A stretch of 33,507 nucleotides of DNA from Planctomycetota bacterium (GTDB lineage: Bacteria; Planctomycetota; B15-G4; JADJEK01): assembly GCA_044225365.1 (NCBI GenBank), contig JBGAIQ010000058.1, forward strand, positions 1 through 33,507, read 5' to 3'. Shown one piece after another: positions 292 to 23,039 of the stretch (position 1 is the first letter of the stretch; each line of letters begins with the position of its first letter). The position numbers were made by a program, and so were the translations under genes. The notes under the pieces were generated by a model that worked only from the letters and a program-made list of their open reading frames with translations, had not been told where the DNA came from and did no database searches.

Positions 292-2913
292 TCAAGGCAG
301 GAAGGTCACGCTCACCGGATTCGTGAATTGGATCGGCTTGCCCTGGGACGGCGAGTAGATCATCGCCGAATGCGAGATCGTGACTCCGACGAGCTGCGGG
401 ATCTGCAGCGGCGGAATGGCGAATTGCGCCGACGCGACGCCGTTCGCGTTGAGGATGCCGGAACCATTCTGGAAGACCGGACTCACGGGATTGGAGAGCG
501 TGAGGAATAGATAGGGATCGAGATTGAGCGGAACGTGCTTGCCGAGCAATTCGAAGCCGGGCGAGGTGCCCGACGCCGATCCCAGTATCCAGTAGCTCTT
601 TCCTGCGAGAGCGATGCCCGGCGCGATGATGACGGGTTGCGAGCCGCCGGCCGACACCGAGATCGTCTCGCCCAAAGGCAGCAACGTGGACACCGGGAAC
701 ACGGCGAAACTCGGACGCGCTCCCGAACCAAGTTTATGGAACGCTCCACCCGCGAAGAGATGGTCGCGATGGAACAGGAGAGCTCGCACCTCGCCGTCCG
801 GCGTCGGTTGGAACGCGAGCGGGAAGGATCCGGCCCGGTCGATCGCGGCGAGACGCGGGTAGAAGCCACTCTGTATGAACTGCCACGTTCCGCCGCAGAA
901 CACGATTCCCGGCGACTGGGCGACAGCGAGAACGGGCTGATCGCCGCCATTCGTGATCTTCGGATCGAACGCCGTGACATGCATCGTCGTCGTGTCGATC
1001 TCGGCGATGCCGCGGCGGAGTTGGCCTTCGACGAGCAGGAAGCTGCCGCCGAGGATGATCCGATCCTTGTCGGTCCGCATCGTCTCGACGGTCTTGTTCA
1101 CGGCCGGACTGAGCGGAGCGATCGCGGACGAGACGGGATCCGCTTTCAGGAAGTTGAGATGAGTCGTGTACGGACCGCCGACCGGTCCGACATCCGAGAA
1201 CGACCCGCCGCCATAGACCGCGCTACCGTTCTCGGCGAGAGCGACCGCATGCGTCGGGGTTCCGGTGTAGATCGACCAGCTCGGGATCTTCGCCCCCGTG
1301 ACCTTGTCGTAGAGCGTCGAGATGTCCGCCAGCACGCCGCCCGGAAGGACCGTGAGATCGCGAACGCTGTCCGCGTTCAGGGGGAGTCCCGCGTCGAACG
1401 AGGTGAGCAGCGCGCCCGAATTCGCATCGATCGCCGCGATGCGCGCACGCACGGTCCCGTTGACGTATCCGAACGACCCGCCGACGAAGACCGTGGAACC
1501 TTCGAAGGCGATCGCGGACACGGCGCCAGCGTTCTCCGGAAAGAGGCTGTTCCCGATGTCCGGCGCCCAGGGCAGGATCTCGAGGGTCGTCGCGTCGAAC
1601 GCAGCGATCCCGTGTCGGCGCAGAGCGCCGAGCGAGCGGAAGGAACCACCCACACCGACCCGTCCTCCGCCAACGGCGATGTCCTCCACGTACGTCGCAT
1701 TCTCGCCCGAAACGTTCGCAGTCTGGGGGGTCACGACGCCGGTCGCCGCGTCGACCATTGCGAAGTACCAGCGCTCGGCTCCGCCCAGCTTCCGAAACGT
1801 CCCGCCGAGGAGGAGCCGAGCCGAGCCGCTGCTCGAATCGATCGCCAGCGAATGGACCTCGAGCGCTTCGTTGCCGGAGTCCGAGATCGCGGCGTCGAAC
1901 GGCGTGACGCTTCCCGTGGAGAGGTCGATCGCACCGCACGCGGCTCGCGGGATCCCTCCGAGCAACGTCAGGCGACCGCCGACGTAGAGGATGTTCCCGT
2001 CGAGGGCGAGCGAGAATACGTCCTTGTCCGCCGCGACGGCAAACGGCAGTGTGGCGCCCGTCGCGAGATCGAGCTCCGCGAGTCGCTGTCGTGACGCTCC
2101 GCCGATCGTCGTGAAGTTGCCACCGACGAAGAGGCTGGAGCCGTGGACCACGAGCGCCGCGACCTGCGCGCTCGGGGACGGATCGATCGCCTGGATCGCG
2201 CCGGTCGCCAAGTCGAAGTACGCGAGATGGCGGCGGAACGCGCCGTTGAAGGTGTTCTGGAAGTAGCCACCCGCGATCAGGGCATTGCCGCTCGCGACGA
2301 GCGAGTAGATCCCATCGTCCTGATGGAACGGCGTCGCCGTGCCCGGATTCCACGGCAGCAACTGCAGCGAGGAATCGAATGCGCACAGCGAGCCGCGCGG
2401 GGAGCCGTTGACCAGGACGAACGATCCTCCGACGTACAGCACGCCGTTGTTCCAGAGCAGGGACAACGGCTCGCCATCGATCGAAGGCGTCCAGGGATCG
2501 ACGTCTCCGGACGCGAGAATGTGCGCGAGCCCATCGCGCGGGAGGGCACCGACCGACGAGAAAGGCCCGCAGACGAAGAACCCGCCGGCGCCATCGGGCT
2601 CGACGTCCCGAACGATTCCGTCGATCGCCGGCATCGCGGGAAACGTGGGAGCGCCGCTCGGCAGGTCGAGGGTGCCGAACGAGCCGGAGTTCGGCCCAAA
2701 GGCGCTGAACTGACCTCCGACGTAGACGGCGTTGCCATGGCCCTCGATCACCTCGATCGTTCCGTCGGGAACCCACGGACTGGATTCCGGCACGGAGCTC
2801 ACGAATGGACTCTGACCGCTCGCCATGGAAGCGGCGAGCAACGCGAATGCGCTACTGAGGATTGTCGCTGACGCCAGCGAGCACGTCGACGATCTGCGAT
2901 GGAACGAGCTCAT
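292..2913 (-). CDS. Secreted beta-propeller repeat protein (delta-60/DUF5122-like, ~14 repeats) with subtype-A C-terminal domain, 873 aa
   Basis: Signal peptide (…AFALLAASMASG-Q); repeated 'hYVGGxF…GxxRxxhAxhD' motifs; GGGAG RBS upstream of the ATG at 2913. Confidence 0.85.
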   Translation of the reverse strand: MSSFHRRSSTCSLASATILSSAFALLAASMASGQSPFVSSVPESSPWVPDGTIEVIEGHGNAVYVGGQFSAFGPNSGSFGTLDLPSGAPTFPAMPAIDGIVRDVEPDGAGGFFVCGPFSSVGALPRDGLAHILASGDVDPWTPSIDGEPLSLLWNNGVLYVGGSFVLVNGSPRGSLCAFDSSLQLLPWNPGTATPFHQDDGIYSLVASGNALIAGGYFQNTFNGAFRRHLAYFDLATGAIQAIDPSPSAQVAALVVHGSSLFVGGNFTTIGGASRQRLAELDLATGATLPFAVAADKDVFSLALDGNILYVGGRLTLLGGIPRAACGAIDLSTGSVTPFDAAISDSGNEALEVHSLAIDSSSGSARLLLGGTFRKLGGAERWYFAMVDAATGVVTPQTANVSGENATYVEDIAVGGGRVGVGGSFRSLGALRRHGIAAFDATTLEILPWAPDIGNSLFPENAGAVSAIAFEGSTVFVGGSFGYVNGTVRARIAAIDANSGALLTSFDAGLPLNADSVRDLTVLPGGVLADISTLYDKVTGAKIPSWSIYTGTPTHAVALAENGSAVYGGGSFSDVGPVGGPYTTHLNFLKADPVSSAIAPLSPAVNKTVETMRTDKDRIILGGSFLLVEGQLRRGIAEIDTTTMHVTAFDPKITNGGDQPVLAVAQSPGIVFCGGTWQFIQSGFYPRLAAIDRAGSFPLAFQPTPDGEVRALLFHRDHLFAGGAFHKLGSGARPSFAVFPVSTLLPLGETISVSAGGSQPVIIAPGIALAGKSYWILGSASGTSPGFELLGKHVPLNLDPYLFLTLSNPVSPVFQNGSGILNANGVASAQFAIPPLQIPQLVGVTISHSAMIYSPSQGKPIQFTNPVSVTFLP

Positions 2914-2971
2914 TCGAGTCTCCCGAGGTCCGCAATTCCAAGATCATGATTCGCGCGCGGTCGCGGCGGCG

Positions 2972-4672
2972 TCAATGCGCCTCGAGCTTCAGCGCGTTCG
3001 ACGCCGTGTACCCCAGCGAGATGCCGGGATCCGCGCACAGCGCCTGGACATGCAATGTCCACGGCCCGACCACCCCGTCCGGGATCGTCGCAGTGAACGA
3101 GATCGACCCCTGTCCCGCGCCGACACCGAGCAGCGGAATTGGGATGCCGAATCCGATGAGGTTCGAGAGCAGCAGCGTGCAGCCGCCGTTGCCGAGGGGC
3201 GTGCTTCCGGTCGAGGCGCCGAGGAGCAGCACGGCCGAGTTCGCGCCCGAGGGCGCTCCGAACGCACCCGCGACGACGACGGAGAGCGGGCCCTTCGGCG
3301 CAACGCAACCGGTCAATACGAGCGAAGGGACGAAGCCTCCACTCCCCGCGCAGCCCGTCCCCTCGTTCGCAATCGAGCCGCAGTCGGACGACCACACGTC
3401 GACGAAGCCCTTGAGGCCGATCGTCTGCTCGCCGCCGATGAGGAGATCCGGCCGCCCGTCGCCATTCAGGTCGAAGCCGCCCGCCACCGCCGAGCCGACG
3501 AGATCGTTCTTCGCCGCGCCGAGGTAGGTACGGATGACGGAGCCCGTCGCGCCGGAGAACGTGCGAGCCATACCCGATTCCGCATCGATCTGATCGTTGT
3601 CGGGCGCGCCGACGATGAAGTCCGCCTTGCCGTCCTGGTCGATGTCGCCGATGCCCTGCACGTCGTCGCCGAAACCGTCGAAGTCGCCGTCGCCGCGCTT
3701 CACGTAGAGCGAGGCGAACGTGGCGCCCGAGTACGCACGCACGGAGCCGCTGAAGAAGCCGATGGTGTCGTCGTTCGGAACGCCGATCAGGACGTCGGGT
3801 ATACCGTCGCCGTTGAGATCGCCGGGCCCGGCCACCGAGTAGCCGAAGACGTCGTTGCTGCTCGCAGCGTCGAACTGCTTCATCAGCGCCCCGCTCGCTC
3901 CGGAGTAGAGACGTACGCGTCCGCCCTTCGCGAAGGTGGCGGTGTTGGCGCCCGGCAGGCCAACGAGTTGATCGGGAACTCCATCGAGGTTCACGTCACG
4001 CGCGTTGCCGCACGACCAGCCAGCCCACTGATCGGGCTCGTCGCCGAGGTACCCGCGAATCAGCGCGCCGGTCTTTCCGGAATACAGGCGCACGGCGCCC
4101 GCGTTCTTGTTCGCGCCGATCTTCTCGAAGCGGGAGCCGACGAGCACGTCGGGGAATCCGTCGAGGTCGACGTCGCCCGCGCCATCGACCGACGAGCCGG
4201 TCTCCTGCCCGAGCGCGGTGCCGCCGAACTCGAAGAGCGTCGCGCCCGACGCGCTCGAAACGATCCGCGCGTAGCCGCCGAGGTTGGCGCCCTGCTGCTG
4301 CTCGGTCGCTCCGACGAGGAGGTCATCGCGGCCGTCGCCGTCGACGTCTCCTGCCGGCGCCACGGAGATCCCGAGCCAGTCGAGGCCGTGGCCGGTCACT
4401 TCGTAGATCACCGAGAAATCGACGCCCGAGTACACCGTCGCGGTTCCCGGTTGGTTGTACGGATCGACGTTGTGTCGATACGCGCCCACGACGAAGTCGG
4501 GAACTCCGTCCTGGTTCGCGTCGCCGAGGAACCGCGCGTCGTGTCCGAAGAGCGATTGGACGTGAGGCCCGATCAGGCGGACGAGCGGAGCCTGAGCGAA
4601 GGCCGAGCCCCACGCACCCATCGCGAGCACGGTGACGATGAAAGGAGGCACGACGCCATCCACGATCGACAT
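2972..4672 (-). CDS. Secreted FG-GAP/integrin-alpha-like 7-repeat propeller protein with subtype-B (Cys-containing) C-terminal domain, 566 aa
   Basis: Start moved to ATG 4672 (GGGAG RBS; signal peptide ending AFA-Q). Seven DxD/NxDG Ca-binding motifs flanked by FG…GAP/GAY-type segments. Confidence 0.88.
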   Translation of the reverse strand: MSIVDGVVPPFIVTVLAMGAWGSAFAQAPLVRLIGPHVQSLFGHDARFLGDANQDGVPDFVVGAYRHNVDPYNQPGTATVYSGVDFSVIYEVTGHGLDWLGISVAPAGDVDGDGRDDLLVGATEQQQGANLGGYARIVSSASGATLFEFGGTALGQETGSSVDGAGDVDLDGFPDVLVGSRFEKIGANKNAGAVRLYSGKTGALIRGYLGDEPDQWAGWSCGNARDVNLDGVPDQLVGLPGANTATFAKGGRVRLYSGASGALMKQFDAASSNDVFGYSVAGPGDLNGDGIPDVLIGVPNDDTIGFFSGSVRAYSGATFASLYVKRGDGDFDGFGDDVQGIGDIDQDGKADFIVGAPDNDQIDAESGMARTFSGATGSVIRTYLGAAKNDLVGSAVAGGFDLNGDGRPDLLIGGEQTIGLKGFVDVWSSDCGSIANEGTGCAGSGGFVPSLVLTGCVAPKGPLSVVVAGAFGAPSGANSAVLLLGASTGSTPLGNGGCTLLLSNLIGFGIPIPLLGVGAGQGSISFTATIPDGVVGPWTLHVQALCADPGISLGYTASNALKLEAH

Positions 4673-4731
4673 CACTTCTCCCATCCTTCGCGCCCGTTTG
4701 GCGAGCGCGAGAGTTCTTGATCGACGAGCTT

Positions 4732-6399
4732 TCACGGCACGCTGACGTGAACGCCCTCAGTCGCGGCGAATCCGTGCGGAGCTGAGGCATCGGCCATCAA
4801 CGCCTGCGCATAGAACGAAACGAGCGGCCCACCCGGCGGCAGCGGAACAGAGAGTGCGATCGATCCAACGCCGTCGAGCGGAAGAGCGATCGGACTCGGG
4901 AGCGGCGCGAAGTTCAGGATGCATCCGCCCGGGAGGCCGAGCGATGCCGGCGTGAGCCCGAGGAAGAGCAACGCGACGCCGTTGGCGACACCTTGCGTGA
5001 TCTCGAGCGAGACGATCCCGGTCGGCACGAAACACCCGGAGAGCGCGAGGGACGGAATCGTGGCCGCGCCCGTGGGGCAACCGACTCCGAGGGACGACGT
5101 GCTGCCGCAGTTGCGGGTGAAGACCACTGCGGAACCGGAGAGATTGCCATTCGGATCCGAGTCGGGCGCGCCGAATGCGAATTCGACGATGCCGTCGCCG
5201 TTGCCATCGCCGACGAAGGCGCAGCTCTTGCCGAACGCATCCCCGATCGCGCCACCGAGCGTCGTGTACAGCGTCGCCCCATTGGCCGCGGGCGCGCCGG
5301 AGAACACGTATCCCGCGCCCGAGTTGTTTCCCGCCGCGTCGTTCTTCGGAGCGCCAACGAGGACGTCGGGTCTCCCATCTCCATCGAGATCGAATCCACC
5401 GCTCACGGTGGTTCCGAGCGCGTCGCCCGCGGCTCCGGTCCAGGTGTGCAGCACGTTCGAGAAGATGCCGCGAATCAAGTACGCGGCGCCCGCGTCGGTG
5501 CCGCCGGCGTCGTTGCCCGGCGCGCCGACGAGGAGATCGACGATGCCGTCGCCGTTCGTGTCGCCGACCGCGGCCACCGAAGCGCCGTACTGATCGAATC
5601 CGGCGAGGCCCGTGTAGTTGAAGAGGATCGCCCCGTCCTGCCCGGCGTACACGTGCGCTCGTCCCGCGAAGTCCTCGCTCGGCGCACCGACGAGGATCTC
5701 CGGGTAGCCGTCGCCAATGAGATCGCCGAGCGTTGCGATCGCCGCTCCGAACTTCGCATTCGACTTCGGAACGGCGAGCGTACGCATTGTCGTGAAGTCC
5801 TTACCGGAGATCACGCGAACCCGTCCCGAGTTCGTTCCGCCGATGGAGGACTCCCCCGCCGAACCGACGGCGAAGTCCGGATACCCGTCGAGATTCATGT
5901 CCCCCGCGGGGGACATGGCTTCCCCGACGCGATCGCCGCCCGCCGGAGCGACACCGTTCTGCGTGTAGAGCGCATTGCCGGTGGCGCCGGAGTACAGCCG
6001 CGCGATGCCGATATCGAAGTTGAAATCGGGTCCTCCACCGAGCACGTCCGGGGTGCCGTCACCGTCGATGTCGCCGACCCCCGCGATCGATGCGCCCATG
6101 TGCTCGAGCGTGTTGCCGACGAGCGTGCGGATCTCGAGACCCGTTCGCCCGGACACGATGCGGATCGTCCCACAGTCGAGTCCGTTGTCGTCGTCGCGAA
6201 TCGCGCCGATCGCGAAGTCGGGCCGGCCATCATGGTCGATGTCGCCCACCGCGGCGATCGCGGTGCCGAAGCGGTCTTCGTCGAAGTTGCCCGTCACGAC
6301 GTGGATGACCTGTTGCGCCTCGGCGCGGACCCCGAGGACGAGCGCCGCACCAACGACGACGCCGGCATGGACCGCCGCCGTACTCGCGCGAACGCTCAT
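4732..6399 (-). CDS. Secreted FG-GAP/integrin-alpha-like 7-repeat propeller protein with subtype-B C-terminal domain, 555 aa
   Basis: Likely start is ATG 6399, overlapping the upstream stop (TGATG); signal peptide ends AEA-Q; seven DxDxDG-type repeats. The 5' extension in the ORF track is a shadow frame of the upstream gene. Confidence 0.88.
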   Translation of the reverse strand: MSVRASTAAVHAGVVVGAALVLGVRAEAQQVIHVVTGNFDEDRFGTAIAAVGDIDHDGRPDFAIGAIRDDDNGLDCGTIRIVSGRTGLEIRTLVGNTLEHMGASIAGVGDIDGDGTPDVLGGGPDFNFDIGIARLYSGATGNALYTQNGVAPAGGDRVGEAMSPAGDMNLDGYPDFAVGSAGESSIGGTNSGRVRVISGKDFTTMRTLAVPKSNAKFGAAIATLGDLIGDGYPEILVGAPSEDFAGRAHVYAGQDGAILFNYTGLAGFDQYGASVAAVGDTNGDGIVDLLVGAPGNDAGGTDAGAAYLIRGIFSNVLHTWTGAAGDALGTTVSGGFDLDGDGRPDVLVGAPKNDAAGNNSGAGYVFSGAPAANGATLYTTLGGAIGDAFGKSCAFVGDGNGDGIVEFAFGAPDSDPNGNLSGSAVVFTRNCGSTSSLGVGCPTGAATIPSLALSGCFVPTGIVSLEITQGVANGVALLFLGLTPASLGLPGGCILNFAPLPSPIALPLDGVGSIALSVPLPPGGPLVSFYAQALMADASAPHGFAATEGVHVSVP

Positions 6400-8375
6400 C
6401 ACGGCACGATCCGAAGCGAAACGGGATTGCTCACGGCCTTGACCTTGCCCTTCGCCTGGTCGTAGACGAAGTACGCGTGGTAGATGAAGAGGTTCGTCAA
6501 CTCCGAGGGCAGACCCGTCGGGACGTAGATCGCCATCTCCGCGCGACCATTCGCGTCCAGCAAGCCCATCGAATTCTGCACGAAGCTGTTCGGGTAGGTC
6601 AGCATCGCGGAGAAGTACGGATCCGCGATCAAGGGCATCGCGAAGCCGGCGAAGGGAGTGCCGGGACTCGTGCCCGTGATGCTGCCGAGCGTGTAGTAGT
6701 ACTTGCCCGCGTACTGCGATCCGGCGTTGACGAGCATCGTCTGCACGCCGCCGACGGAGGCGTTGATGACGTCGATGTCCGCGGAGAGTGGCGCGGGCTG
6801 GGTACTGAGGATCGCGTAGACCTCGCCCGAATGCGTAGCGGGCGGGTTCTTCGCGTTGCGCGACGCGATCAGGATGTCGGGCCGGCCATCGCCATTGATG
6901 TCGCCCGCGCCGGATACGTCGTCGCCGATGTCGTCCTGCTTCGTGACGCCCGCGAAGCGCACGCCGGTCGTGAGTTCGTCGAGCGCAGCGAGGTTGAAGT
7001 GCGCGCCGTTCCCGATATCCGGCCCACCGTAGATCACGTAGGCCTCGCCCGCGTTCTGGAGTCCCGCGGGATCGGCGGCCCGCGATGCGGTGAGGACGTC
7101 GGCGTAGCCATCGCCATTCACGTCGCCAGGACCACCGACGGCGAAGCCGATCGAATTCTCCGCCGTGTCGCCATCGATCCGCACGCCTGCAGTTCCGCTC
7201 AGACTCTGCACGAACACGAAACCGGTCTGGCCCACGTTGGGTCCACCGAACACAATGTTGACCTGACCGCATTCATGGAACGGTGAACCGTTGTGCGGCG
7301 CACCGGCCGCGATGTCTGGAATGCCGTCGCCGTTGAAGTCACCGATCGCCGCGACGTCGATCCCGAGTTGATCGCCTGCCTGCGAGCCCGAGACCTTGAA
7401 CCCAATGCCCGTGAGCGGCTGCGCCGTATCGACCACCGCTCCGGTCGTCGGACCGAAGACGACGAACACGGCGCCGGGGCTTCCCGTCGCGTCGAGTCCG
7501 GGATCACCGATGACGATGTCCCCGCGCCCGTCCCCGTTCATGTCGGCGGAGAGGGCGACCGACCGACCGAACTCCTGATTCGCAGACGGCCCGAGCAGCG
7601 AGATCGAATTGGCCGTCGTGAACGACGCGACGTCGAGCACGGAGTTGGGGACGAAACCGGTTCCGCCGAACAGCACGTAGGCGCGACCCGAAAGGCCATT
7701 GCCATTGGTCGTGGCATCCGGAGAACCGATCACGAAATCGGAGAAGCCGTCGCCGTTGACGTCGGCTCCCCCACCGAGGCTCGAACCGAATCGATCGCCG
7801 GCGGCCTCACCCCTCAGCGTGAATCCGTGCGCGGCGACGAGCCCGGCGATCGAGGTTTCCTTGTTCGCCGAGATCCCGGCGAAGCCGAAGACGACGTAGA
7901 CGCGGCCCGCGTCGATCTTGCCCGGCAGATCGGCGAGAGGCGACCCAATGGCGAAATCGGCGAAACCGTCGCCGTTGATGTCGCCGAGGCCGGAGATCGC
8001 GCCGCCGAACTGTTCGTTCGTAGGTCCACTGATGCGGATCGCGCTGGCGCTCGTCACCGATGTGAAGTCCACGATCCCGTTCCCACCGATCGACGGCTTG
8101 CCGAAGACGAGGTAGGCGAATGGATGATCGCCCGAGGTGAGGAAGTCGGCGATGCCGTCGCCGTTCACGTCGCCGACGGGCGCGACGTGCGTGCCGAGAC
8201 TCGTCTGCGTGGCGTTGTGGAACAGCCGGAATCCGTTGTTGCCGAGCAGCGTGCTGAGGTCGTAGTCGATCGAAGCGCTCGCGACGCCCGCGAGGACGAG
8301 CGACGAGGCCACGCACGCAGCGATACGGAACGGATTGCGAGAAAGCCGCGAAGCGGCGGAGGAAGGATCGCTCAT
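6399..8375 (-). CDS. Secreted FG-GAP/integrin-alpha-like 7-repeat propeller protein with subtype-A C-terminal domain, 658 aa
   Basis: ATG 8375 with GGGAG RBS; signal peptide ends ASA-S; seven [G/A]DxNGDG repeats with GxxYVhFG closing strands. Confidence 0.88.
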   Translation of the reverse strand: MSDPSSAASRLSRNPFRIAACVASSLVLAGVASASIDYDLSTLLGNNGFRLFHNATQTSLGTHVAPVGDVNGDGIADFLTSGDHPFAYLVFGKPSIGGNGIVDFTSVTSASAIRISGPTNEQFGGAISGLGDINGDGFADFAIGSPLADLPGKIDAGRVYVVFGFAGISANKETSIAGLVAAHGFTLRGEAAGDRFGSSLGGGADVNGDGFSDFVIGSPDATTNGNGLSGRAYVLFGGTGFVPNSVLDVASFTTANSISLLGPSANQEFGRSVALSADMNGDGRGDIVIGDPGLDATGSPGAVFVVFGPTTGAVVDTAQPLTGIGFKVSGSQAGDQLGIDVAAIGDFNGDGIPDIAAGAPHNGSPFHECGQVNIVFGGPNVGQTGFVFVQSLSGTAGVRIDGDTAENSIGFAVGGPGDVNGDGYADVLTASRAADPAGLQNAGEAYVIYGGPDIGNGAHFNLAALDELTTGVRFAGVTKQDDIGDDVSGAGDINGDGRPDILIASRNAKNPPATHSGEVYAILSTQPAPLSADIDVINASVGGVQTMLVNAGSQYAGKYYYTLGSITGTSPGTPFAGFAMPLIADPYFSAMLTYPNSFVQNSMGLLDANGRAEMAIYVPTGLPSELTNLFIYHAYFVYDQAKGKVKAVSNPVSLRIVP

Positions 8376-8407
8376 TCGTGTTTCTCCCGGAGTGGACGCG
8401 CGCCGCG

Positions 8408-11400
8408 TCACGGATTCAAGAACAGGGGGTACGCGCGACTCGCGAACACGGGGAACTGATTGCTCCCGAGCACGAGGTACGCGTGTTGGAGTAGGAATTT
8501 CGGCGGCAGGCCGGTGATGCCCGGCGGCAGATTGAACGAGGCCGTCGTGTTGCCCTGCGCATCGAGCACGCCGAGGAAGTTCGCGAACACCGGCGTGTTG
8601 AAGTTCGCCGCGACGATGAAGAAGTAGGAGTCGTAGTTCAACGGCAGGTGCGTCGAACCGAACTGCAGGCCCGGCGAGGTGCCCGTGACAGAGCCGAGCA
8701 TCGCGTAGCTCTTGCCGGCGTTCGCCGCGCCGCCGTGCAGCGACAGCACCTGACTTCCGCCCGCCGCGAGCGAGATCGTCGTCGTATTGCCCGCGAGCGT
8801 GCTGTCGCGGCCAAAGACGACGTAGGTCGTGCCGGCGAGCGTGAGTCCATTCGGACCGGAGATCGGCGCGCCGATGGCGATGTCGTCGCGGCCATCGAAG
8901 TTCAGGTCGCCGATCGCCGCGACGGCATAGCCCGCGGCGTCGTTCGTCTTCTCGCCGACGAATCTCACGCCCGTCGAGGTCGAGAGCGTCGCGAGATTCA
9001 GCGTGCCCGTTCCGCCGATCGCGACGTCGCCGTAGATGCAGTAGGCCTTGCCCGAAGCGGCGCCGTTCGGTGCCGCGCTCGACGCGCCGACGAGCAGGTC
9101 GCGAATGCCGTCGTCGTTGACATCACCGCTCCCGAGCCCGAGTCCGAAGTCGTCGGGATTCGCTTCTCCGATCGCCTTGAAACCGTTCGAACCGACGAGG
9201 TTTGCCACGGCGAGGGATGCGCCCGGCGCGGCCGCATCGCCGAACACCCAGGCGACGATTCCCGGGTCGATACCGATGCTGCCGCCCGAATGCGACGCGA
9301 ATGCGACGTCCACGGTGCCGTCCGCATTCGGATCGCCCGCCGCCGCCACTTCCTGACCGAGTTGTTCGTTCGTCACGTCGCCGGCGAGCACGAAGCGAGA
9401 CGACGCAGGGAGCGTCGCGAAATCGAGATTCCCCGCGCTGCCCACCGTAGGTCCGCCGAAGAGCACGATCCCGGCGCCGGTCGTGGTGAACGGAGCGTTC
9501 AGCCCGGGCGCTCCGATCGCGAGATCGGCATAGCCGTCATGGTTCACGTCTCCCGGCCCCGCCACTGCGTTGCCGAAGACCGCGCCGCCTTGCCCGCCCC
9601 GGATCGAGAACCCCGCGCTCGGGGGCAGCGTCGCGAGCGAGATGTCGCCCGAAAGGAGCTGCGGTGAGTTGCCGAAGAGCACGTAGACGCGCCCTTCACG
9701 CAATCCGGGAATCTCGCCGGTGCCGTCGTTGTGACAGAGACCGACCTTCGCCGTGTTCTTGGTGATGACGAGGACGTCCTGCTTGCCGTCGTCGTCGTAA
9801 TCGCCGATGCGCACCTTCAGGACGTTCGCGCCCTGGTTGAACGTCTCGGTGGCCGAGTAGAAGGGCGCGCTCTTCGCGCGGCTGATCAGGATCGTGTTCG
9901 AATCACCGCCAGGGCCGACGATGTCGGGCCGTCCGTCGCCGTCCAGATCGCCCGCCACTGCGCCGGAGACATTGGTCGCGGCGGCCACGATCGGCGCTCC
10001 GAGCGTTCCCGCGCCGATGTTCGGCACGATCACGATGCCGCTCGAATCCGCGAGGAGATCGACGTCGCCGTCGTTGTCGATGTCCGTCGCTCCGAGCAAC
10101 TCGGTCGCGAGGATCGGCAGCGTCTGGTTCAGGATGAAACCGAAGCCCGCGTACTGATACACGTACAGCGTTCCGAACTTGTTCTCGCTGAGACAGAGTT
10201 CGGGAAGGCCGTCGTTCTGGAGATCGGCGAAACGAATCGACTGCGCGACGTCGCTCGCGCCCACCGGGATCGAGAGCGTCGTCGTCGCCGCGCCGACGGT
10301 GCCGTTCGTCACGAGCGTGCCCTCGCCCGGATTGATCCCGCCCGGATGATGCGCGACCGCGAGATCGAGATCGCCGTCCGCGTCGACGTCGCCGAGATCG
10401 AAATTGCCGAGCGTCTGCCCGCCCTCGAAGAGCTTGGTCGGGAACCCCAACCCGAAACCGAGATTCGGGAGGTAGTGGATGCGGGAGACCACGCTGCCGG
10501 AAACGACGCCGCGCGCGCTGACGAGCAGATCGAGGTCCCCGTCGAGATCCCAATCGACGAGCACCGGATGATCGGGTTCGGTGAGGAACGCGGAGAACGG
10601 CGTGCCGGTCGAGAACGCCCCGCCGCCGAGGCCGGTCTCGATCGCGAGTTGTCCCGGCGTGGTGTAGGTGACGAGGAGATCGTTGATCCCGTCGCCGTTG
10701 ATGTCGCCGACAGCGACGTCGTCCGGAACGAGCGAAGTCGGATGCGAGTCCGCGACGCCGCCCGCGCCCGAGGCGCTCACCGCGAAATCGGCGATCCCGT
10801 CGCCATTGAAATCGCCGAGGCCCGCGACCGATCCACCGAGGAAGCTCGTGGCCTGGACTCCGCGAATCCGGACTCCGAGTGAAGGAGTGAGATTCGTGAT
10901 GTCGATCTGCGCGGGGGCTCCGATCGAGGATTTTCCGTAGAGGACGTAGGCCTCGCCTTCCTGTCCGGTCGACGCTCCGCTATCGGCGCCCGGCGCGCCG
11001 ATCAGGAAATCCGCGCGTCCATCGCCGTTCACGTCGCCGATTCCCGCACACGACCAGCCGCAGAAGTCGGAGGCATTGCGACCCCGAACGAGATATCCGC
11101 TCGTACCGGGCTGCGTGAACAAGTTCACCGCTCCCGCGGAGGTGAGCGATGCGGCGCCGTACGTGACGAAGAGGCCGCCTGCGAGACTATTGCCCGGCTT
11201 GTTGAGGTAGGGCGCACCCGTGATCAGATCGACGATGCCGTCGCCGTTGAGATCGCCCGCGGACGCGATCGACCAGCCGCTGCGGAACCCGACCCCGCCG
11301 CCCTGGAGCTTCAGGACGTCGGTCGCCGCAGCCGTGCCAAGATTGATCTGCAGCGGGAATTGCGCGGTCGCGCACGGCGCGAGGACCAACCCGAACACGA

Positions 11401-11440
11401 TGGAAGCGACGATCCTCGACCGATGACGCGGTGCGACCAT
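8408..11440 (-). CDS. Secreted double-propeller protein: FG-GAP 7-repeat propeller with an inserted VCBS-like 7-repeat unit, subtype-A C-terminal domain, 1010 aa
   Basis: Signal peptide ends ATA-Q; 14 DxDxDG-type motifs of two repeat styles. Confidence 0.88.
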   Translation of the reverse strand: MVAPRHRSRIVASIVFGLVLAPCATAQFPLQINLGTAAATDVLKLQGGGVGFRSGWSIASAGDLNGDGIVDLITGAPYLNKPGNSLAGGLFVTYGAASLTSAGAVNLFTQPGTSGYLVRGRNASDFCGWSCAGIGDVNGDGRADFLIGAPGADSGASTGQEGEAYVLYGKSSIGAPAQIDITNLTPSLGVRIRGVQATSFLGGSVAGLGDFNGDGIADFAVSASGAGGVADSHPTSLVPDDVAVGDINGDGINDLLVTYTTPGQLAIETGLGGGAFSTGTPFSAFLTEPDHPVLVDWDLDGDLDLLVSARGVVSGSVVSRIHYLPNLGFGLGFPTKLFEGGQTLGNFDLGDVDADGDLDLAVAHHPGGINPGEGTLVTNGTVGAATTTLSIPVGASDVAQSIRFADLQNDGLPELCLSENKFGTLYVYQYAGFGFILNQTLPILATELLGATDIDNDGDVDLLADSSGIVIVPNIGAGTLGAPIVAAATNVSGAVAGDLDGDGRPDIVGPGGDSNTILISRAKSAPFYSATETFNQGANVLKVRIGDYDDDGKQDVLVITKNTAKVGLCHNDGTGEIPGLREGRVYVLFGNSPQLLSGDISLATLPPSAGFSIRGGQGGAVFGNAVAGPGDVNHDGYADLAIGAPGLNAPFTTTGAGIVLFGGPTVGSAGNLDFATLPASSRFVLAGDVTNEQLGQEVAAAGDPNADGTVDVAFASHSGGSIGIDPGIVAWVFGDAAAPGASLAVANLVGSNGFKAIGEANPDDFGLGLGSGDVNDDGIRDLLVGASSAAPNGAASGKAYCIYGDVAIGGTGTLNLATLSTSTGVRFVGEKTNDAAGYAVAAIGDLNFDGRDDIAIGAPISGPNGLTLAGTTYVVFGRDSTLAGNTTTISLAAGGSQVLSLHGGAANAGKSYAMLGSVTGTSPGLQFGSTHLPLNYDSYFFIVAANFNTPVFANFLGVLDAQGNTTASFNLPPGITGLPPKFLLQHAYLVLGSNQFPVFASRAYPLFLNP

Positions 11441-16447: not shown

Positions 16448-17974
16448 ATGTCGTATTCCATCCACGGCGCCACCCTGATCGGCATCGACGCCGAACCCGT
16501 CGAGGTCGAGGTGAAATTGCAGCGCGGCGTCATGGGCAAATTCCTCCTTTCGGGATTGCCCGACGCCGCCGTGCGCGAGTCGCGCGAGCGAGTGAAGTGC
16601 GCTGCGATCGCATCGGGACTGCGCTTTCCTCGCCAAACCTTGCTCGCGCATTTCGCACCGGGCGACGTGAAGAAGGAGGGCAATCTCCTCGACCTTCCGC
16701 TCGCGCTCGCTGTGCTCGGAGCGAGTGGTCAGATCCCGGTGCCGCGCTGCTCCCGCGTGCTCGCGGTGGGCGAACTCGCGCTCGATGGCCGCGTGCGCAA
16801 CGTGCGCGGGCTCTTGCCGATCGCGGTCGCCGCGCGGCGTCTCGGCGTCGAGGCGATGATCGCGCCGGCCGAAGGCGCGCCGCAGGCGGCCCTCGTCGAA
16901 GGCCTCCTCGTGATTCCGGTCCAGACGCTGCTCGAAGCCGTCGCCTGGCTCTCGGGCCACCTCGCCATTCCTCCCGCGGCGGCGGAGACCGTCGCGACCG
17001 ATTCCGAAGCGGTCGAGGACTTCGCCGACGTGCGAGGTCAGGAAGAGGCCAAGCTCGCGGTCGCCGTCGCGGCCTCGGGGCTCCACAACCTGCTCTTCAT
17101 CGGTCCACCGGGATCGGGCAAGACGATGCTCGCACGCCGTCTGCGGTCGCTCCTGCCGCCCCTCGATCGCGAGCAGGCACTCGAATGCACGCGGATCGCG
17201 AGTGTCACGTCGCCGCGACGCGTTCCGCTGCACCAGCGCCCGCCCTTCCGCGCGCCCCATCACACCGCGTCGTCCATCGCGCTCATCGGCGGCGGGCCGA
17301 AACTGCGCCCGGGCGAGATCACGCTCGCGCATCACGGCGTGCTGTTCCTCGACGAACTGCCGGAGTTCGATCGCAATGCTCTCGAGGCGCTGCGCCAACC
17401 GCTGGAGGAGCGCATGGTGGCGATCAGTCGCGCGGCGGGAACCGCCGTGATGCCGGCGGACTTCTGCCTCGTCGCCGCGATGAATCCGTGCCCGTGCGGC
17501 TATCGCGGATCACCGAAGGTGGCATGCCGTTGCTCGGACGTGATGATCCGTCGCTACTCCGATCGGCTGTCGGGGCCATTGCTCGATCGCATCGACCTCA
17601 CGGTCGAAGTGCCCGCGATCGATCCCGAGCGGCTCCTCGGCGCGAGCGTCGAGACCACGACGACGGACCTGATCGAGCGAATCGCGAAGGCGCGCGCGAT
17701 GCAGGCCCAGCGATTCTCTACGGCTGGCTCACGTACACGTGCGAACGGACGCATGACCGGCGCCGAGGTCGAGAAGTTCTGTGCGCTCGACGCGGCGAGC
17801 CGAAGGCTCGTGATCAAGACCGCGGAGGCGCAACGACTCTCCGCGAGGGCGATCGTGCGCGCGTTGCGCGTGGCGAGGACGGTCGCGGATCTGCGCGGGG
17901 CCGAGTCGGTGTCGAGCGAAGACGTCGCCGTCGCGCTCGCCTGGCGCTGCCGGATCACGAAGGAGGACGTCTGA
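16448..17974 (+). CDS. comM: YifB/ComM family Mg-chelatase-like AAA+ ATPase, 508 aa
   Basis: GLPDAAVRESRERV, Walker A GPPGSGKT, PFRAPHHT, GVLFLDELPEF, AMNPCPCG and SGPLLDRID; start moved to ATG 16448. Confidence 0.95.
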   Translation: MSYSIHGATLIGIDAEPVEVEVKLQRGVMGKFLLSGLPDAAVRESRERVKCAAIASGLRFPRQTLLAHFAPGDVKKEGNLLDLPLALAVLGASGQIPVPRCSRVLAVGELALDGRVRNVRGLLPIAVAARRLGVEAMIAPAEGAPQAALVEGLLVIPVQTLLEAVAWLSGHLAIPPAAAETVATDSEAVEDFADVRGQEEAKLAVAVAASGLHNLLFIGPPGSGKTMLARRLRSLLPPLDREQALECTRIASVTSPRRVPLHQRPPFRAPHHTASSIALIGGGPKLRPGEITLAHHGVLFLDELPEFDRNALEALRQPLEERMVAISRAAGTAVMPADFCLVAAMNPCPCGYRGSPKVACRCSDVMIRRYSDRLSGPLLDRIDLTVEVPAIDPERLLGASVETTTTDLIERIAKARAMQAQRFSTAGSRTRANGRMTGAEVEKFCALDAASRRLVIKTAEAQRLSARAIVRALRVARTVADLRGAESVSSEDVAVALAWRCRITKEDV

Positions 17975-20489
17975 GCGAACGGAAGAAGCCGACGAGCAAG
18001 AGCCCTGTCGCGAGCATCGTGAGCAGCCCACCGAGTCGAGCCGCATGCGGCTCATAAGTCAGCACGACGCCCTTCGCATTCGCGGGTAGCGGCACGGCGC
18101 GGAAGGCGTGATCGGCGGGGAGCACGGGTCGCGACTCGCCGTCGACGCGGGCCGTCCAGCCCGCGTCGTACGAATCGGCGACGAACAGGAATGCCGGTTC
18201 AGCGAGCCCTTCGATCGCGACTTCGACGCGCGTCGGTTGCTCGCTCACGATCTTCGCGTTACCCGCGACCTTCTTGGCCCCGCGGGCGAATCCCGGACCC
18301 GGATCGGTCTCGAGGAGAACCGTCGATTCTGGATCGAGCGAGGGATCGCACAGGCGCGCGAGCCGAGTCGGCTTGTCCGTGACGACGTCGAATCCGCCGA
18401 CGAGACGGACTCGCGGCAGCGTGCCCGCGACGCGGTAGACGCCAAGCTGTTCGCCGGTGCCCGATCCGTCGTAGATCACGTCGAACCCGGCGCGGACGAT
18501 CGGGCGATCCACGACGATGTTCGGCGTGGCCGTCCGACGAAACGCCGGATGCTCGAAGCTCTCGAGCCGCTCGAACCCTTTCACGACGCGCGGATCGCGA
18601 CGGTCGATCCGTCCCGGCTCGATCGTTTCGATCAGCTCGCCCATCCGCGTGAGGATCATCGGCTCACCGCCATCGAGGCAGCGATATCCGAAGTACGGAG
18701 CGAGCAGCGCCGCCGCGATCCGGTGGTCCGCGTATCGCACGCTGCGCCCCTCAGCCTTCGCGAGGAACTCGATCGCGGGCGTCGTCGGATATTGACCCGC
18801 ACGTTCCTGCAGGGGATTCGATCGCATCGCGTAGAGCACCAGCTCGCCGCCCCCGACGAGGAACAACACGACGCACAGCGCCGTGGCGCGGCGCGTGATC
18901 GCCGCGAATCGCAGGCCGACGAATGCAACGAGGACGACGCCGATCACTCCGACCATCTCGAACAGTTGCCGTGCTGTGTGCCGACCAAAGGGCGCGAACC
19001 CCCCCAACCCCTTGGCTGCCGTCTCCCCCAATTCGAGGGCAGGAGACAGTTCGAAGAGGACGCCGGCAAGAAGCAGCACTCCTGCGGCTCCACCTGCGAA
19101 GAGCATGAACCTGCGACGCGTCGCTTCGCCGCGGTCATCGACCTCGCCACGGAGTCGGGCGTCCAGTCCGAACGCCGCGAGCATCGGCAACGCGAAGCAC
19201 ATGAGAAGCAACGCGCGCTTCGGATTCGACGCCGCGAGCCAGGGCGCGTGTCGGAACATCGACTCGAGCAACGGAGTCTGGAGGGCGAGCAGCAGAGCGA
19301 GGAGGACGAGGACGGCGAGCGCGCCGCACGGTCGCCTCCGCAGCGGAATGCCGAACGCGAGCAGGACGAGGAGCACGGCGGAGCCCGGCCACAACGCGTT
19401 CTCGACCGGATTCTCCTGCGGGTCGTCGGAGAGCCATCGCTGGTGCGGGTAGTAGGCCGCGAGCTCGTTCGGAATGCCTTCGCGATCGGCCATGTTGCCG
19501 AAGAAGTCGGGAAGCACGAGACCCACGAGCGCCGCGGGTCGCATCGCCTTGCCGTACTGGGCCTCGGGCGTCACGAACTCGCGCCGCAGCGAGTTGGGCA
19601 GGAGGGATAGCGTGGGCAGCAATTGATTCGATGCCAGGAGCAGGCCGAGCGCGACGCCTCCGGTCGCGACGAGCGCGATCCGTCCGCGATCCGCGCATCC
19701 GCGCTCGAACAGGCGAAGTGCGCCGTAGACCGCCCCGCCGAGCAACTCGATCATGAGCACTTGCGGGAATCCCGCGAAGGCCGCCCCTGCCACCGCCACG
19801 GCGAGCAGCACCGTCCGCGACAGCCAGGACTTCAGGAGCGGGTTCGAGTGCGACGTCGAGAACAGGGAATCGAGCGCGACCAAGATCCAGGGGAACCATG
19901 CCGCCGTCGCAACGATCGAGGGCAGGTGGATCCGCGTCGTCATCCACGCGCAGAATTGGAACGCGATGCCTCCGAAGAGAGCGCACGCGATTCGAACCTG
20001 GTGCCCGCGCAGGAAGAAGTATGCGCCAATCCCCGCGAACGCGAAATGCAGCACGAGGACGGCGGCCATCGCTCGCAGGAGATCGTCCGCTCGCAGGGCC
20101 AGCCAGTTCGGAAAGTAGTACGGCGGGAACGCGAGATTCGCGAGCAGGGGCTGGCCGCAGAGCACGAACGGATTCCACAGGGGCGCGCGTCCCGCCTGCA
20201 CCTCGTCGGCGATGAACTTCCCTTCGGGAACGATCCAGCCGTTGAGATCCGACGTGACGAAATTGGCCGAACGGGATGCGAGGTCCGCAGGTGCTTTCGC
20301 AACGAAGGGCACGAAGGCCCGCGAGTCGAACGACAGGATGCAGCGATCCTGAAACAGCGCGGGGACGAACGGCAGGAGCGCCGCGATCAGCAGCACGAGG
20401 CTCGCGAGGAGGTCGGGGAGGAACGACCGAAAGGACGGCGCGAGGTCTTTCGCCGGCGCAGTCTCGGGCGGCGATGCGTAGGAACGCAT
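17955..20489 (-). CDS. YfhO-family membrane protein (GT-C fold glycosyltransferase-like), ~844 aa
   Basis: PLWNPFVLCGQPLLAN, many TM helices, C-terminal ADSYDAGWTARVDG…ADHAFRAV…LTYEP plus a final TM helix. Start uncertain (ATG 20489 or GTG 20531). Confidence 0.88.
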   Translation of the reverse strand: MRSYASPPETAPAKDLAPSFRSFLPDLLASLVLLIAALLPFVPALFQDRCILSFDSRAFVPFVAKAPADLASRSANFVTSDLNGWIVPEGKFIADEVQAGRAPLWNPFVLCGQPLLANLAFPPYYFPNWLALRADDLLRAMAAVLVLHFAFAGIGAYFFLRGHQVRIACALFGGIAFQFCAWMTTRIHLPSIVATAAWFPWILVALDSLFSTSHSNPLLKSWLSRTVLLAVAVAGAAFAGFPQVLMIELLGGAVYGALRLFERGCADRGRIALVATGGVALGLLLASNQLLPTLSLLPNSLRREFVTPEAQYGKAMRPAALVGLVLPDFFGNMADREGIPNELAAYYPHQRWLSDDPQENPVENALWPGSAVLLVLLAFGIPLRRRPCGALAVLVLLALLLALQTPLLESMFRHAPWLAASNPKRALLLMCFALPMLAAFGLDARLRGEVDDRGEATRRRFMLFAGGAAGVLLLAGVLFELSPALELGETAAKGLGGFAPFGRHTARQLFEMVGVIGVVLVAFVGLRFAAITRRATALCVVLFLVGGGELVLYAMRSNPLQERAGQYPTTPAIEFLAKAEGRSVRYADHRIAAALLAPYFGYRCLDGGEPMILTRMGELIETIEPGRIDRRDPRVVKGFERLESFEHPAFRRTATPNIVVDRPIVRAGFDVIYDGSGTGEQLGVYRVAGTLPRVRLVGGFDVVTDKPTRLARLCDPSLDPESTVLLETDPGPGFARGAKKVAGNAKIVSEQPTRVEVAIEGLAEPAFLFVADSYDAGWTARVDGESRPVLPADHAFRAVPLPANAKGVVLTYEPHAARLGGLLTMLATGLLLVGFFRSLRRPPS

Positions 20490-20563
20490 CGATTCTCGAA
20501 TCTCGTGGTCCTCGGGGTTCGCGGGCGTCACGCGAAGGATGGTATCTTCCGGCGCGAATCGAA

Positions 20564-22564
20564 ATGACCGAAAACCGCAGCACCGCAGTTCCGTCCTCGA
20601 ACGCGACGCCGAGTCCTCGGCGCGGCGGGTTCGCCGATGCGTTGCGAGGCGCGCTGCGCGACGGCGGCCCGCTCCTCCTCGCGATCCTCGCCTTCGCGGC
20701 CATCGCCCGCATCGCGTACGTGAGCCAGTTCTTCGCGACCAATCCATTCGCGCACGCCGAGACGCTGATCTCCGACGCGAAGCTCTATCACGAATGGGCG
20801 CAACGGATCGCGGGCGGCGACCTCCTCGGGCCGGCGGAACCGCTCCATCACCCGCCGCTCTATCCGTATCTGCTCGGACTCGTCTACGCGATCGCGGGGC
20901 CGTCACCCGGCGCGATGGTGACCCTGCAATCGCTCGTCGGCCTCGTCACACTGCTGCTCGTCTTCGCGATCTCGCGGCGAGTGACGAGTCGCGGCCCCGC
21001 GCTCGTAGTGACCGCACTCGCAGCGCTCTACTGGCCGTTCGCGTTCTACGAAACGCGATTGCTGCCCTCGAGTCTCGCGACGTTCACGGCTGCGCTCGCG
21101 CTCGCCCAGCTCTGCGGAGTCTTCGGAAACCTCACGCGCGGGCGGCTCTTCCTCGCGGGACTCGCGCTCGGAATCCTCGCCGGACTCCGGCCGAATCAGC
21201 TCCTCGCGCTCGCCTTCGTGGTCCCGGTCGCCGGATGGCTCGCGCGCGATGCGACACTCCCTCGCGCGCGAATCGTGAATGTCCTCCTGCTCGGACTCGG
21301 CGCGCTCTTGCCGATCCTTCCGTTCACATTGCGCAACGTCGTGCACGCGGGCGAAGCGGTCCTCCTTTGCGATACCGGCGGGATCAACCTCTACTTCGCG
21401 CACTCGAAGGGCGCCGGCGCGTCGTTCAAGGTGGACGACCCACGCTGGGGCAACGTCGAGGATCAGCCCGCGTATTCCCGGCGCATGGCCGAAGCGGAGA
21501 CGCAGAACCCCTCCCTCACCTGGAGCGAAGTGTCGAGTCACTTCACGCGAAAAGCGCTCGACTTCGCTGTCGCCCATCCCCTCGATGAACTGCGAAGCCT
21601 CCTCGCCCGCGCGCGAGCGATCCTCGATTCGTTCGAATACTGCGTGATCTACGCGCCACTTCCGGAACGCGCGATCGCATCGACCTCGTGGCTCTTTCCG
21701 ATTCCGTTCGCGCCCTTCGCGGCGCTCGTGCTCGCGGGAATCGTGGCGACCCTGAGGACGCGCCCGCGCGATCCCCTTGCACTCGTCCTGCTCGCTTACG
21801 CAATCGCGCAATGGGCGATGGTGCTGATCTTCTTCCAGTACTCGCGCTTTCGCCTCGTCTCCATGCCCGCGCTCGTTCCCCTCGCTGCGATCGGACTGGG
21901 CCAAGTCGTGCAGGGCGTGCGGGCGCGCCGCTTCGCGCTCGAGTTCGTCGCCGTCGCGATCGGCGCCGTGGTGTCTCTCCTGCCCGAGACGTCCGAAGCA
22001 TCCGATCAGCGCGCGAACCAGGATGTCGCGATCGCTTCGGCCTATCGCACGCTGCACGACTTCGCGGCTGCCAATGAGGCACTCGATCGTTCGGAGCGAT
22101 CGCGCCCGGGACTCGTCAACCAGCGACTCGAGCGCGTTGCACTGTTCATCGATCAGAAACAGTTCGGCGGGGCGCGCGCCGAACTCGAGACGGGTCTGTC
22201 GAAGTCACCCGATCAACCTCTCTATCTGCTGACGCTGGCGAAACTGCTCGTCACCACCGAGCCGACGGACCTCGCACGGGCAGCGGACCTCGCGAGGCGC
22301 GCGACTCGACTCGCTCCGGCCCTCATCGAGACCTGGCTCGAGCTGGGACGGGTCCTCCTGGCAGCAAAGCAATGGGAGCCGCTTCGAACGGCGATGCAGG
22401 ACGCGATCGCGCACGGCGCGTCGAGCGCTCCGATCCTCACGTTGCTCGGCAGCGCCTGCCGAAATCTCGGCGACTTCGACGCCGCGCGAAAGGCCCTGCT
22501 CCACGCGATCGAGATCGACCCGCGCTTCGCCCCCGCCCAGGACGAGCTACGACGCCTCCCGTAG
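20564..22564 (+). CDS. ArnT/PMT-like GT-C glycosyltransferase with C-terminal TPR repeats, 666 aa
   Basis: SDAKLYHEWA, PPLYPYLLG, LRPN, RN…GGINLY and RFRL motifs; ~11 TM helices; TPR tail (…AIEIDPRFAPAQ). Confidence 0.85.
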   Translation: MTENRSTAVPSSNATPSPRRGGFADALRGALRDGGPLLLAILAFAAIARIAYVSQFFATNPFAHAETLISDAKLYHEWAQRIAGGDLLGPAEPLHHPPLYPYLLGLVYAIAGPSPGAMVTLQSLVGLVTLLLVFAISRRVTSRGPALVVTALAALYWPFAFYETRLLPSSLATFTAALALAQLCGVFGNLTRGRLFLAGLALGILAGLRPNQLLALAFVVPVAGWLARDATLPRARIVNVLLLGLGALLPILPFTLRNVVHAGEAVLLCDTGGINLYFAHSKGAGASFKVDDPRWGNVEDQPAYSRRMAEAETQNPSLTWSEVSSHFTRKALDFAVAHPLDELRSLLARARAILDSFEYCVIYAPLPERAIASTSWLFPIPFAPFAALVLAGIVATLRTRPRDPLALVLLAYAIAQWAMVLIFFQYSRFRLVSMPALVPLAAIGLGQVVQGVRARRFALEFVAVAIGAVVSLLPETSEASDQRANQDVAIASAYRTLHDFAAANEALDRSERSRPGLVNQRLERVALFIDQKQFGGARAELETGLSKSPDQPLYLLTLAKLLVTTEPTDLARAADLARRATRLAPALIETWLELGRVLLAAKQWEPLRTAMQDAIAHGASSAPILTLLGSACRNLGDFDAARKALLHAIEIDPRFAPAQDELRRLP

Positions 22565-22640
22565 GGCGCGGGCGTCCGGACCGCCGCGCGCCAGCGCGGC
22601 TACCCAACGCCAAGACGGGTCGACAGCCGTCGACCCCTAC
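22561..22640. repeat. Inverted pair of GTAG-type REP-like hairpins between convergent genes
   Basis: 22617-22640 GGGTCGAC-AGCC-GTCGACCC-CTAC has the same loop and tail as the REP at 187-210; 22561-22592 is GTAG followed by an imperfect GC hairpin in the opposite orientation. Confidence 0.7.
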
Positions 22641-22658
22641 GAAGGAGGGTCACCGTGT

Positions 22659-22982: not shown

Positions 22983-23039
22983 TCGCGACTTGCTCCAAGC
23001 CTTGCGTCGATTCGACCTCGGAATGTCTACCATCTCGCT

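Follow-up and report, generated by a model that had tools for sequence, protein, structure and literature searches.

A two-subtype C-terminal domain family on exported proteins of Planctomycetota: a possible localisation tag

Why should five neighbouring genes, whose products look exported and carry different passengers, all end in a related domain? The question is raised by a 33,507-nt stretch of DNA from a Planctomycetota bacterium (GenBank assembly GCA_044225365.1, contig JBGAIQ010000058.1; the whole stretch is referred to here as the window), in which the genes G1-G5, all on the minus strand, lie co-oriented and closely packed between positions 292 and 11440. A first, sequence-only reading had described five co-oriented genes with Sec-like N-termini, two types of passenger and one shared C-terminal domain, and had suggested that this domain is a sorting or anchoring signal. 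The open reading frames (ORFs) and the N-termini confirm the first part of this description: all five N-termini are Sec-signal-peptide-like, both on direct reading and by a hydrophobicity rule of our own, which was used in place of a dedicated predictor for every signal-peptide call reported here. The C-terminal domain proved to be a real and recurrent family, which is absent from the family libraries consulted.

By blastp, the last approximately 130 residues of G1-G5 split into two subtypes, A (G1, G4 and G5) and B (G2 and G3). The subtype A pairs match each other at E values of 1.2e-27 (G1-G5, 49% over 94 aa), 3.8e-26 (G1-G4) and 1.9e-20 (G4-G5), and the subtype B pair G2-G3 at 4e-15 (35% over 131 aa), while the best pair between the subtypes reached 6e-5 in a database of five sequences. 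A sixth copy of the domain was not found in the window by tblastn, the next best match having an E value of 0.15. Profiles of four sequences did not link A with B significantly (P 0.04-0.08). When 73 sequences of A were aligned with 33 of B, hhalign gave a probability of 76%, an E value of 2.2e-5 and a score of 34.9, the 103 aligned columns being co-linear and reaching from the first long strand through the last; the highest score among 26 controls (two reversed, 12 column-permuted and 12 block-permuted) was 19.7. Judged by this comparison, A and B are probably homologous versions of one fold. Because the profile-profile match links A with B, the claim of a related domain on all five genes is borne out, the link holding at the profile level only.

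The motifs of subtype A, as seen in 73 sequences, are GG, AGxxY, LGSxSGTSPG, LPLNxDxY, LGxLDAxGxA, HA[YF] and SNPVxLxLxP-COOH. They uphold the consensus drawn earlier from the window (GG, AGKxY, LGSxxGTSPG, PLNxDxY, GxLDAxG, HA and a terminal P), and the subtype A coordinates given there were correct within a few bases. Subtype B has the pattern GTGCAGSGGFVPxL...TGC...GGC[TS]L...GxGQGSI...QAFxxDxG...SNG, and its four cysteine columns are filled in 25, 32, 28 and 32 of the 33 sequences, which fits an oxidising, extracytoplasmic location. Direct reading also confirmed that Pro is the final residue of four of the five window proteins, G2 having His instead, and that none has a C-terminal hydrophobic helix or a basic tail.

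AlphaFold modelled the subtype A domain of G4 with a predicted local distance difference test (pLDDT) score of 97 and a predicted template-modelling (pTM) score of 0.89 from the 73-row alignment; with four sequences only, the pLDDT was 60. The predicted fold is an immunoglobulin (Ig)-like beta-sandwich of about ten strands and one short helix. Foldseek searches of the PDB with this model gave generic Ig-like matches only (query-normalised TM score at most 0.51, identity 9-16%, best E value 4e-4), the best being V domains of antibodies and three pilus chaperones (EcpB, Caf1M and FaeE). For the modelled domain, such matches reflect a common fold class and indicate neither relationship nor function.

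At the sequence level the domain is equally isolated. At E 0.1 the C-termini of the whole G1-G5 proteins lie outside every Pfam and NCBIfam match, and the isolated domains have no Pfam match at E 10; their single NCBIfam match at E 10 is to an unrelated lipoprotein family (E 0.051, far below the cut-off). The best match of A and B among PDB sequences has an E value of 0.15. In the ESM Atlas the nearest clusters are Planctomycetota proteins of 117-140 aa (0.87-0.89) and Planctomycetota CHRD proteins (0.78), all of them under the lead threshold of 0.9; the latter agree with the CHRD carriers P0163 and P0169. No description of the domain was found in the literature searched, and the accessible part of a preprint on the Saltatorellota mentions neither C-terminal domains nor secretion nor FG-GAP (10.1101/817700).

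How far does the domain reach beyond the window? Single-sequence word-index searches returned one outside relative for A and two for B. When a trimmed alignment of five sequences was run against the word index, among longer proteins only and with E values of at most 0.01, 80 proteins with subtype A were retained out of 8000 scored candidates, three of the 80 being the window's own; together with P0002 the set comprised 81 proteins (local hidden Markov model, HMM). Each of the 81 has exactly one copy. The domain stands at the extreme C-terminus in 75, ending no more than four residues from it in 73, and P0208 and P0210 are also terminal, with an insertion before the last strand. The six remaining copies are internal (P0178, P0179, P0205, P0206, P0220 and P0226) and are followed by PKD, lamin-tail (LTD) or beta-helix-like regions; in P0179 the domain comes immediately after the signal peptide. 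Of 73 terminal A-type proteins, 53 finish with Pro, and such a conserved free end would be unusual for a mere spacer. A signal-peptide-like N-terminus was found in 69 of the 77 carriers that start with Met, and the other eight look like truncated gene calls.

The passengers of subtype A are of approximately 20 Pfam-defined types that are mutually unrelated, and many carriers have no family at all (precomputed Pfam list). When 26 proteins were re-checked, 25 had a Pfam family and in none did the best stretch lie over the A domain. There are propellers (FG-GAP 1, 2 and 3, Rax2-type, Kelch/galactose-oxidase, BNR/sortilin, PQQ_2 and RCC1), enzymes (GSDH, esterase, endonuclease I, peptidase M14, peptidase M64 with CARDB, and arylsulfotransferase) and others (CHRD, cupredoxin, DUF5060, DUF7453, beta-helix/NosD, Spondin_N, CBM96 and phytase-like). 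Two of the carriers, P0002 and P0070, have adjacent locus tags. An exhaustive HMMER search with a 541-column profile yielded 73,771 matches that reflect the FG-GAP_2 passenger; among 149 other FG-GAP_2-rich proteins from this search, 148 lack both subtypes, so that the domain is not a standard part of the FG-GAP_2 propeller. In a tree of A domains, used qualitatively only since 43 of its 70 forks are unresolved, passenger classes are interspersed, as fits a mobile module, and the copies of G1, G4 and G5 are not mutual nearest relatives. As a separate observation, the metagenomic P0208 and P0210 (approximately 1490 aa) combine Ig_7 domains, labelled 'CHU_C associated' in Pfam, and a beta-helix with the A-type end; CHU_C we take to be the T9SS (type IX secretion system) C-terminal domain of type B.

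All named sources of subtype A are Planctomycetota except one 1981-bp contig labelled Thermodesulfobacteriota. One carrier, P0219, is a protein of the cultured Engelhardtia mirabilis (NCBI, UniRef and nr), which NCBI taxonomy places in Planctomycetia incertae sedis. The organism is treated in the Saltatorellota preprint, whose accessible part gives 67-70.5% G+C for related isolates (10.1101/817700); the G+C content of the window is 61-69%.

Subtype B was sought in one genome per species with a three-sequence alignment (G3 was left out). This gave 261 matching stretches, of which 23 encode a relative, in 22 loci that are all labelled as Planctomycetota or members thereof. A local HMM run over the 317,177 bases of these loci detected B in 32 ORFs from outside the window, and in 30 of them the domain ends no more than two residues from the stop codon. 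One of the two exceptional ORFs runs off its contig; the other (L018:2450-3997) is without the last strand and reads on through another 280 codons, as if frameshifted. B-type genes stand three in tandem in each of L008, L010 and L019, and two in tandem in L012. Pfam assigns the B passengers to FG-GAP_2, FG-GAP_3, BNR_2, Laminin_G_3, PQQ_2, Kelch, HpiC1-like and DUF3466, several being without a family, and two metagenomic relatives carry a BNR/sortilin propeller and an unknown fold, respectively. Subtypes also meet outside the window: within 10 kb, L022 has a pair of A-type genes together with a B-type gene (1-696, 6439-8352 and 8645-10411), the same mixture of A and B as in the window.

As far as sequence comparisons indicate, A and B are self-contained domains of one family with two subtypes that is so far almost confined to Planctomycetota. 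Single copy, terminal position, the conserved end of A, signal-peptide-like N-termini, diverse passengers and several carriers per genome together make up the signature of a localisation tag. This is the pattern that had been predicted at the outset, with many C-terminal matches on signal-peptide proteins of diverse kinds; moreover, the domain matched no characterised family, was seldom internal and was not limited to local paralogues. We count in favour of a tag also that the predicted Ig-like sandwich of A belongs to the same general class as the type A C-terminal domains of the T9SS, as these are described in the accessible part of PMC10202324. Our tentative preference is therefore for a tag that serves secretion or surface retention. 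Recognition, translocation or anchoring, and any cleavage are steps that we infer: a carrier would be exported by Sec and fold in the periplasm, a component of the envelope would recognise its C-terminal A or B domain, and this component would then either move the passenger through the outer membrane or keep it attached to the cell surface. The logic would be that of a T9SS C-terminal domain or a dockerin, and the domain would not be a catalytic or substrate-binding part of its passenger. The narrower proposal, that A and B are substrate tags of an undescribed, T9SS-independent route of Planctomycetota which takes Sec-exported proteins, once folded, through the outer membrane or onto it, seems to us rather unlikely.

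Several points weigh against a tag. No candidate receptor, translocon, processing enzyme or sorting machinery was found by Pfam in the 22 loci and the window, and no family recurs beside carriers in unrelated loci (184 ORFs of the 22 loci, together with the window). The proposal of a sorting or anchoring signal is supported in part, by the distribution pattern; that the domain does sort or anchor its carriers is not supported. The idea of one shared signal did not hold in its original form: A and B share a match at the level of the fold profile and not their conserved motifs, the best-conserved motifs being different in the two. Nor is a terminal Pro a general feature, as it was seen in the majority of terminal A-type proteins but in only five of 30 B-type proteins. 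Unshared motifs and the rarity of Pro in B mean that a single common receptor is not implied. Many of the conserved positions of A are Gly and Pro in turns and could be purely structural, and internal copies (six of 81) should not occur with a strict terminal signal, whereas they are tolerable for a binding module. T9SS C-terminal domain structures are absent among the 50 Foldseek matches listed. Finally, taxonomic labels cover a minority of the A-type matches.

The neighbourhood survey showed a few recurrences and one lead towards a partner. The recurrence of a phosphodiesterase, TerB/DnaJ and M64 set in L004 and L009, and of another set in L013 and L014, was put down to synteny between close relatives and rejected. 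Locus L001 encodes on its minus strand (3497-5953) a protein of 819 aa with a Peptidase_C25 domain (E 3e-49) and a weak B-type end (i-E 0.008); a B-type gene lies approximately 2.6 kb away. Among NCBIfam models the peptidase matches the T9SS sortase PorU best, but its 67 bits fall far short of the cut-off of 420. This is a single occurrence, and we treat the peptidase as a lead to a processing enzyme and no more.

The internal copies, which stand beside PKD or LTD domains, lead to the strongest alternative, an accessory binding module (carbohydrate-binding or an adhesive Ig-like domain) that tethers its carrier to a polysaccharide, a particle or a prey surface and has no role in export or envelope attachment. 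An Ig-like fold with generic matches only would suit such a module, many of the passengers are polymer hydrolases (endonuclease I, peptidases, esterase and DUF5060), and the conserved Asp, Asn, Tyr and His residues of PLNxDxY, LDAxG and HA might form a ligand or metal site. However, no protein has the domain more than once (all 81 carry a single copy), its bias towards the extreme terminus and its conserved final Pro are not what a binding module would lead one to expect, and it is also found on cupredoxin, CHRD and many non-enzymatic propellers as well as on one carrier that already has CBM96. No known carbohydrate-binding module (CBM) or lectin family in Pfam matched, even at E 10; a new CBM-like module is conceivable, and overall we consider a binding role unlikely but deserving of serious attention.

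A folding or stabilising appendage, or a pro-domain that aids the passenger in the periplasm and is possibly clipped off later, would resemble the pre-peptidase C-terminal domain of secreted proteases. It would account for a terminal, single, compact and confidently predicted domain that in G1, G4 and G5 follows the passenger, on direct reading, with almost no linker. Against it, passengers of unrelated fold are unlikely to need the same helper, the domain of P0179 directly follows the signal peptide, and no PF04151-type or other protease C-terminal family matched; we regard this explanation as improbable. Very improbable indeed is an assembly module through which proteins from tandem genes would be joined into a complex or an array on the surface, since the tight or overlapping genes of the window, the similar sets in L008, L010, L012 and L019 and the joint occurrence of A and B in the window and in L022 are offset by the fact that most carriers from elsewhere are known only as single proteins, which differ widely in kind, and no contact evidence was obtained (a two-copy complex prediction for the A domain, run without controls, scored 0.00 against a mark of 0.42 and neither supports nor opposes self-association).

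The genes that carry the putative tag in the window are listed in Table 1. The earlier distinction of two passenger types was sustained for FG-GAP: in G2-G5 Pfam finds FG-GAP at E values of 7e-31 to 5e-47, and the PF01839 model reaches 106-157 bits (cut-off 22.1) over 5-8 stretches, which makes these passengers propellers of that family. For G1 the label 'delta-60-like' is weakly supported. DUF5122, which we take to be the delta-60 repeat, scores 18.2 bits there, below its cut-off of 27, and the sole Pfam family above cut-off is the Rax2 propeller (32.2 bits against 28.8); NCBIfam gave no match to this passenger.

Table 1. Genes G1-G5 of the window and their C-terminal domains (aa, amino acids).
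Feature	Position	Strand	Description
G1	292-2913	-	873 aa; N-terminus resembling a signal peptide, Rax2-type beta-propeller (weak for DUF5122), C-terminal domain of subtype A
Subtype A domain, G1	295-690	-	residues 742-873 of 873 (HMM envelope); ending ...VSVTFLP, then stop codon
G2	2972-4735	-	587 aa from GTG, 566 aa from ATG (start in database copy P0003); FG-GAP propeller, subtype B
Subtype B domain, G2	2975-3388	-	four conserved cysteines and GTGCAGSGGFVPSL motif; ending ...KLEAH
G3	4732-6399	-	555 aa with start at MSVRAS; FG-GAP propeller, subtype B
Subtype B domain, G3	4735-5118	-	ending ...VHVSVP
G4	6399-8411	-	670 aa from GTG (database copy P0001: 658 aa); FG-GAP propeller, subtype A
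Subtype A domain, G4	6402-6794	-	residues 540-670; sequence used for structure model
G5	8408-11440	-	1010 aa; FG-GAP / FG-GAP_3 repeats, subtype A
Subtype A domain, G5	8411-8803	-	ending ...PLFLNP

The ORF ends of G5/G4, G4/G3 and G3/G2 abut or overlap by 1-4 nt and the gap between G2 and G1 is 58 nt, so that the five genes look like one operon. With the longest ORFs taken, stop and start codons overlap in the GTGA or TGATG manner at G5/G4 (8408-8411), G4/G3 (6399) and G3/G2 (4732-4735), which suggests translational coupling. The listed ORF of G3 reaches position 7272 and overlaps G4, and MSVRAS was taken as its plausible start; the database copies of G2, G4 and G5 start slightly further in, at ATG. 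Just downstream of the G1 stop codon, at 141-278, a unit of approximately 55 nt is present three times in tandem. Copies two and three each contain the exact GC-rich hairpin GGCGCAC-GGCT-GTGCGCC, which is unique to them within the window (chance expectation 0.02), and the units may be elements of the repetitive extragenic palindromic type or stacked terminators.

Elsewhere in the window Pfam recognises a radical SAM protein, a YifB/ComM-like Mg-chelatase ATPase, CutA1, a DHH phosphoesterase and an amidohydrolase. Positions 17955-24593 encode a membrane protein of 983 aa that is YfhO-like, together with two glycosyltransferases of the PMT_2 type, one having TPR repeats, and none of the genes of this cluster was seen among the 22 related loci. 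On the minus strand at 28071-31322 there is an ORF of 1083 aa with a Big_5 bacterial Ig-like domain and with neither an A nor a B domain, which may encode a further large protein that is exported.

What is new here is the domain family; what it most resembles, a folded tag at the C-terminus of exported proteins, is already known in another phylum. No folded-domain sorting signal is known to us for Planctomycetota, and none came up in the literature searched. These bacteria export enzymes and adhesin-like propellers in very large sets, whose delivery to the surface or to the medium is poorly understood, and the A/B domain offers a clear-cut and easily modelled marker with which the exoproteome of uncultured planctomycetes, marine or from groundwater, can be predicted in part. 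It also gives a handle on the partner machinery through co-occurrence across genomes, and the cultured carrier Engelhardtia mirabilis makes the tag hypothesis directly testable. Were the domain merely a binding module, it would still be a new family that deserves a database entry.

Which of the known C-terminal systems does the domain resemble? The signals PEP-CTERM (PMC1569441), LPXTG, GlyGly-CTERM, MYXO-CTERM and their relatives are likewise C-terminal, restricted to lineages and present on many paralogous exported proteins. They are tripartite, however, with a motif, a transmembrane helix and a basic tail in approximately 20-30 aa, whereas the A domain is a 130-aa soluble fold, as predicted, that ends in a beta-strand and Pro. 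A PEP-CTERM/LPXTG-type signal is ruled out by the amphipathic strand with its Pro or His end and by the lack of an NCBIfam match, and an autotransporter beta-barrel (approximately 250-300 aa) by the length of approximately 130 aa, the predicted sandwich and the lack of a Pfam match. The sequence-only reading had set aside these two as well as the T9SS domains, and the models gave no match to any of the three.

Anchoring modules of the dockerin/cohesin type are single, mostly C-terminal modules on many unrelated exported enzymes, and in this they are like the A and B domains, which would likewise place their carriers on a cell-surface partner. A dockerin is a calcium-binding helical repeat, whereas the A domain is predicted to be a beta-sandwich; no partner protein was found in the loci surveyed here, and neither A nor B has a dockerin match in Pfam.

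The C-terminal domain (CTD) of type A is both required and enough for secretion by the T9SS and is cleaved by the PorU sortase. Judged by sequence and taxon, membership of A and B among these domains is excluded. The type A model (motifs A, B, D and E) matched neither G1-G5 at E 0.1 nor the isolated domains at E 10; the type B model gave no match, and no PorP/SprF-like neighbour recurs in the 22 loci or the window. No T9SS component was seen around the carriers, the genomes themselves not having been searched for T9SS genes. The T9SS domains belong to Bacteroidota and the A/B domain to Planctomycetota, the type A CTD has seven strands in two antiparallel sheets while the model of the A domain has about ten strands and a short helix in approximately 130 aa, and six of the 81 A copies, unlike the T9SS domains, are internal. 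The likeness lies elsewhere. According to the accessible part of PMC10202324, the T9SS CTD is an Ig-like sandwich that is recognised in the periplasm, is confined to one phylum and comes in a type A and a type B (PF18962/TIGR04183 and PF13585/TIGR04131). As with the A/B domain, a folded Ig-like sandwich stands at the extreme C-terminus of Sec-exported proteins, in one copy per protein, on many carriers per genome and on diverse passengers, within one phylum and in two subtypes (PMC10202324, same part). In its logic, then, the T9SS CTD is the closest analogue of the planctomycetal domain.

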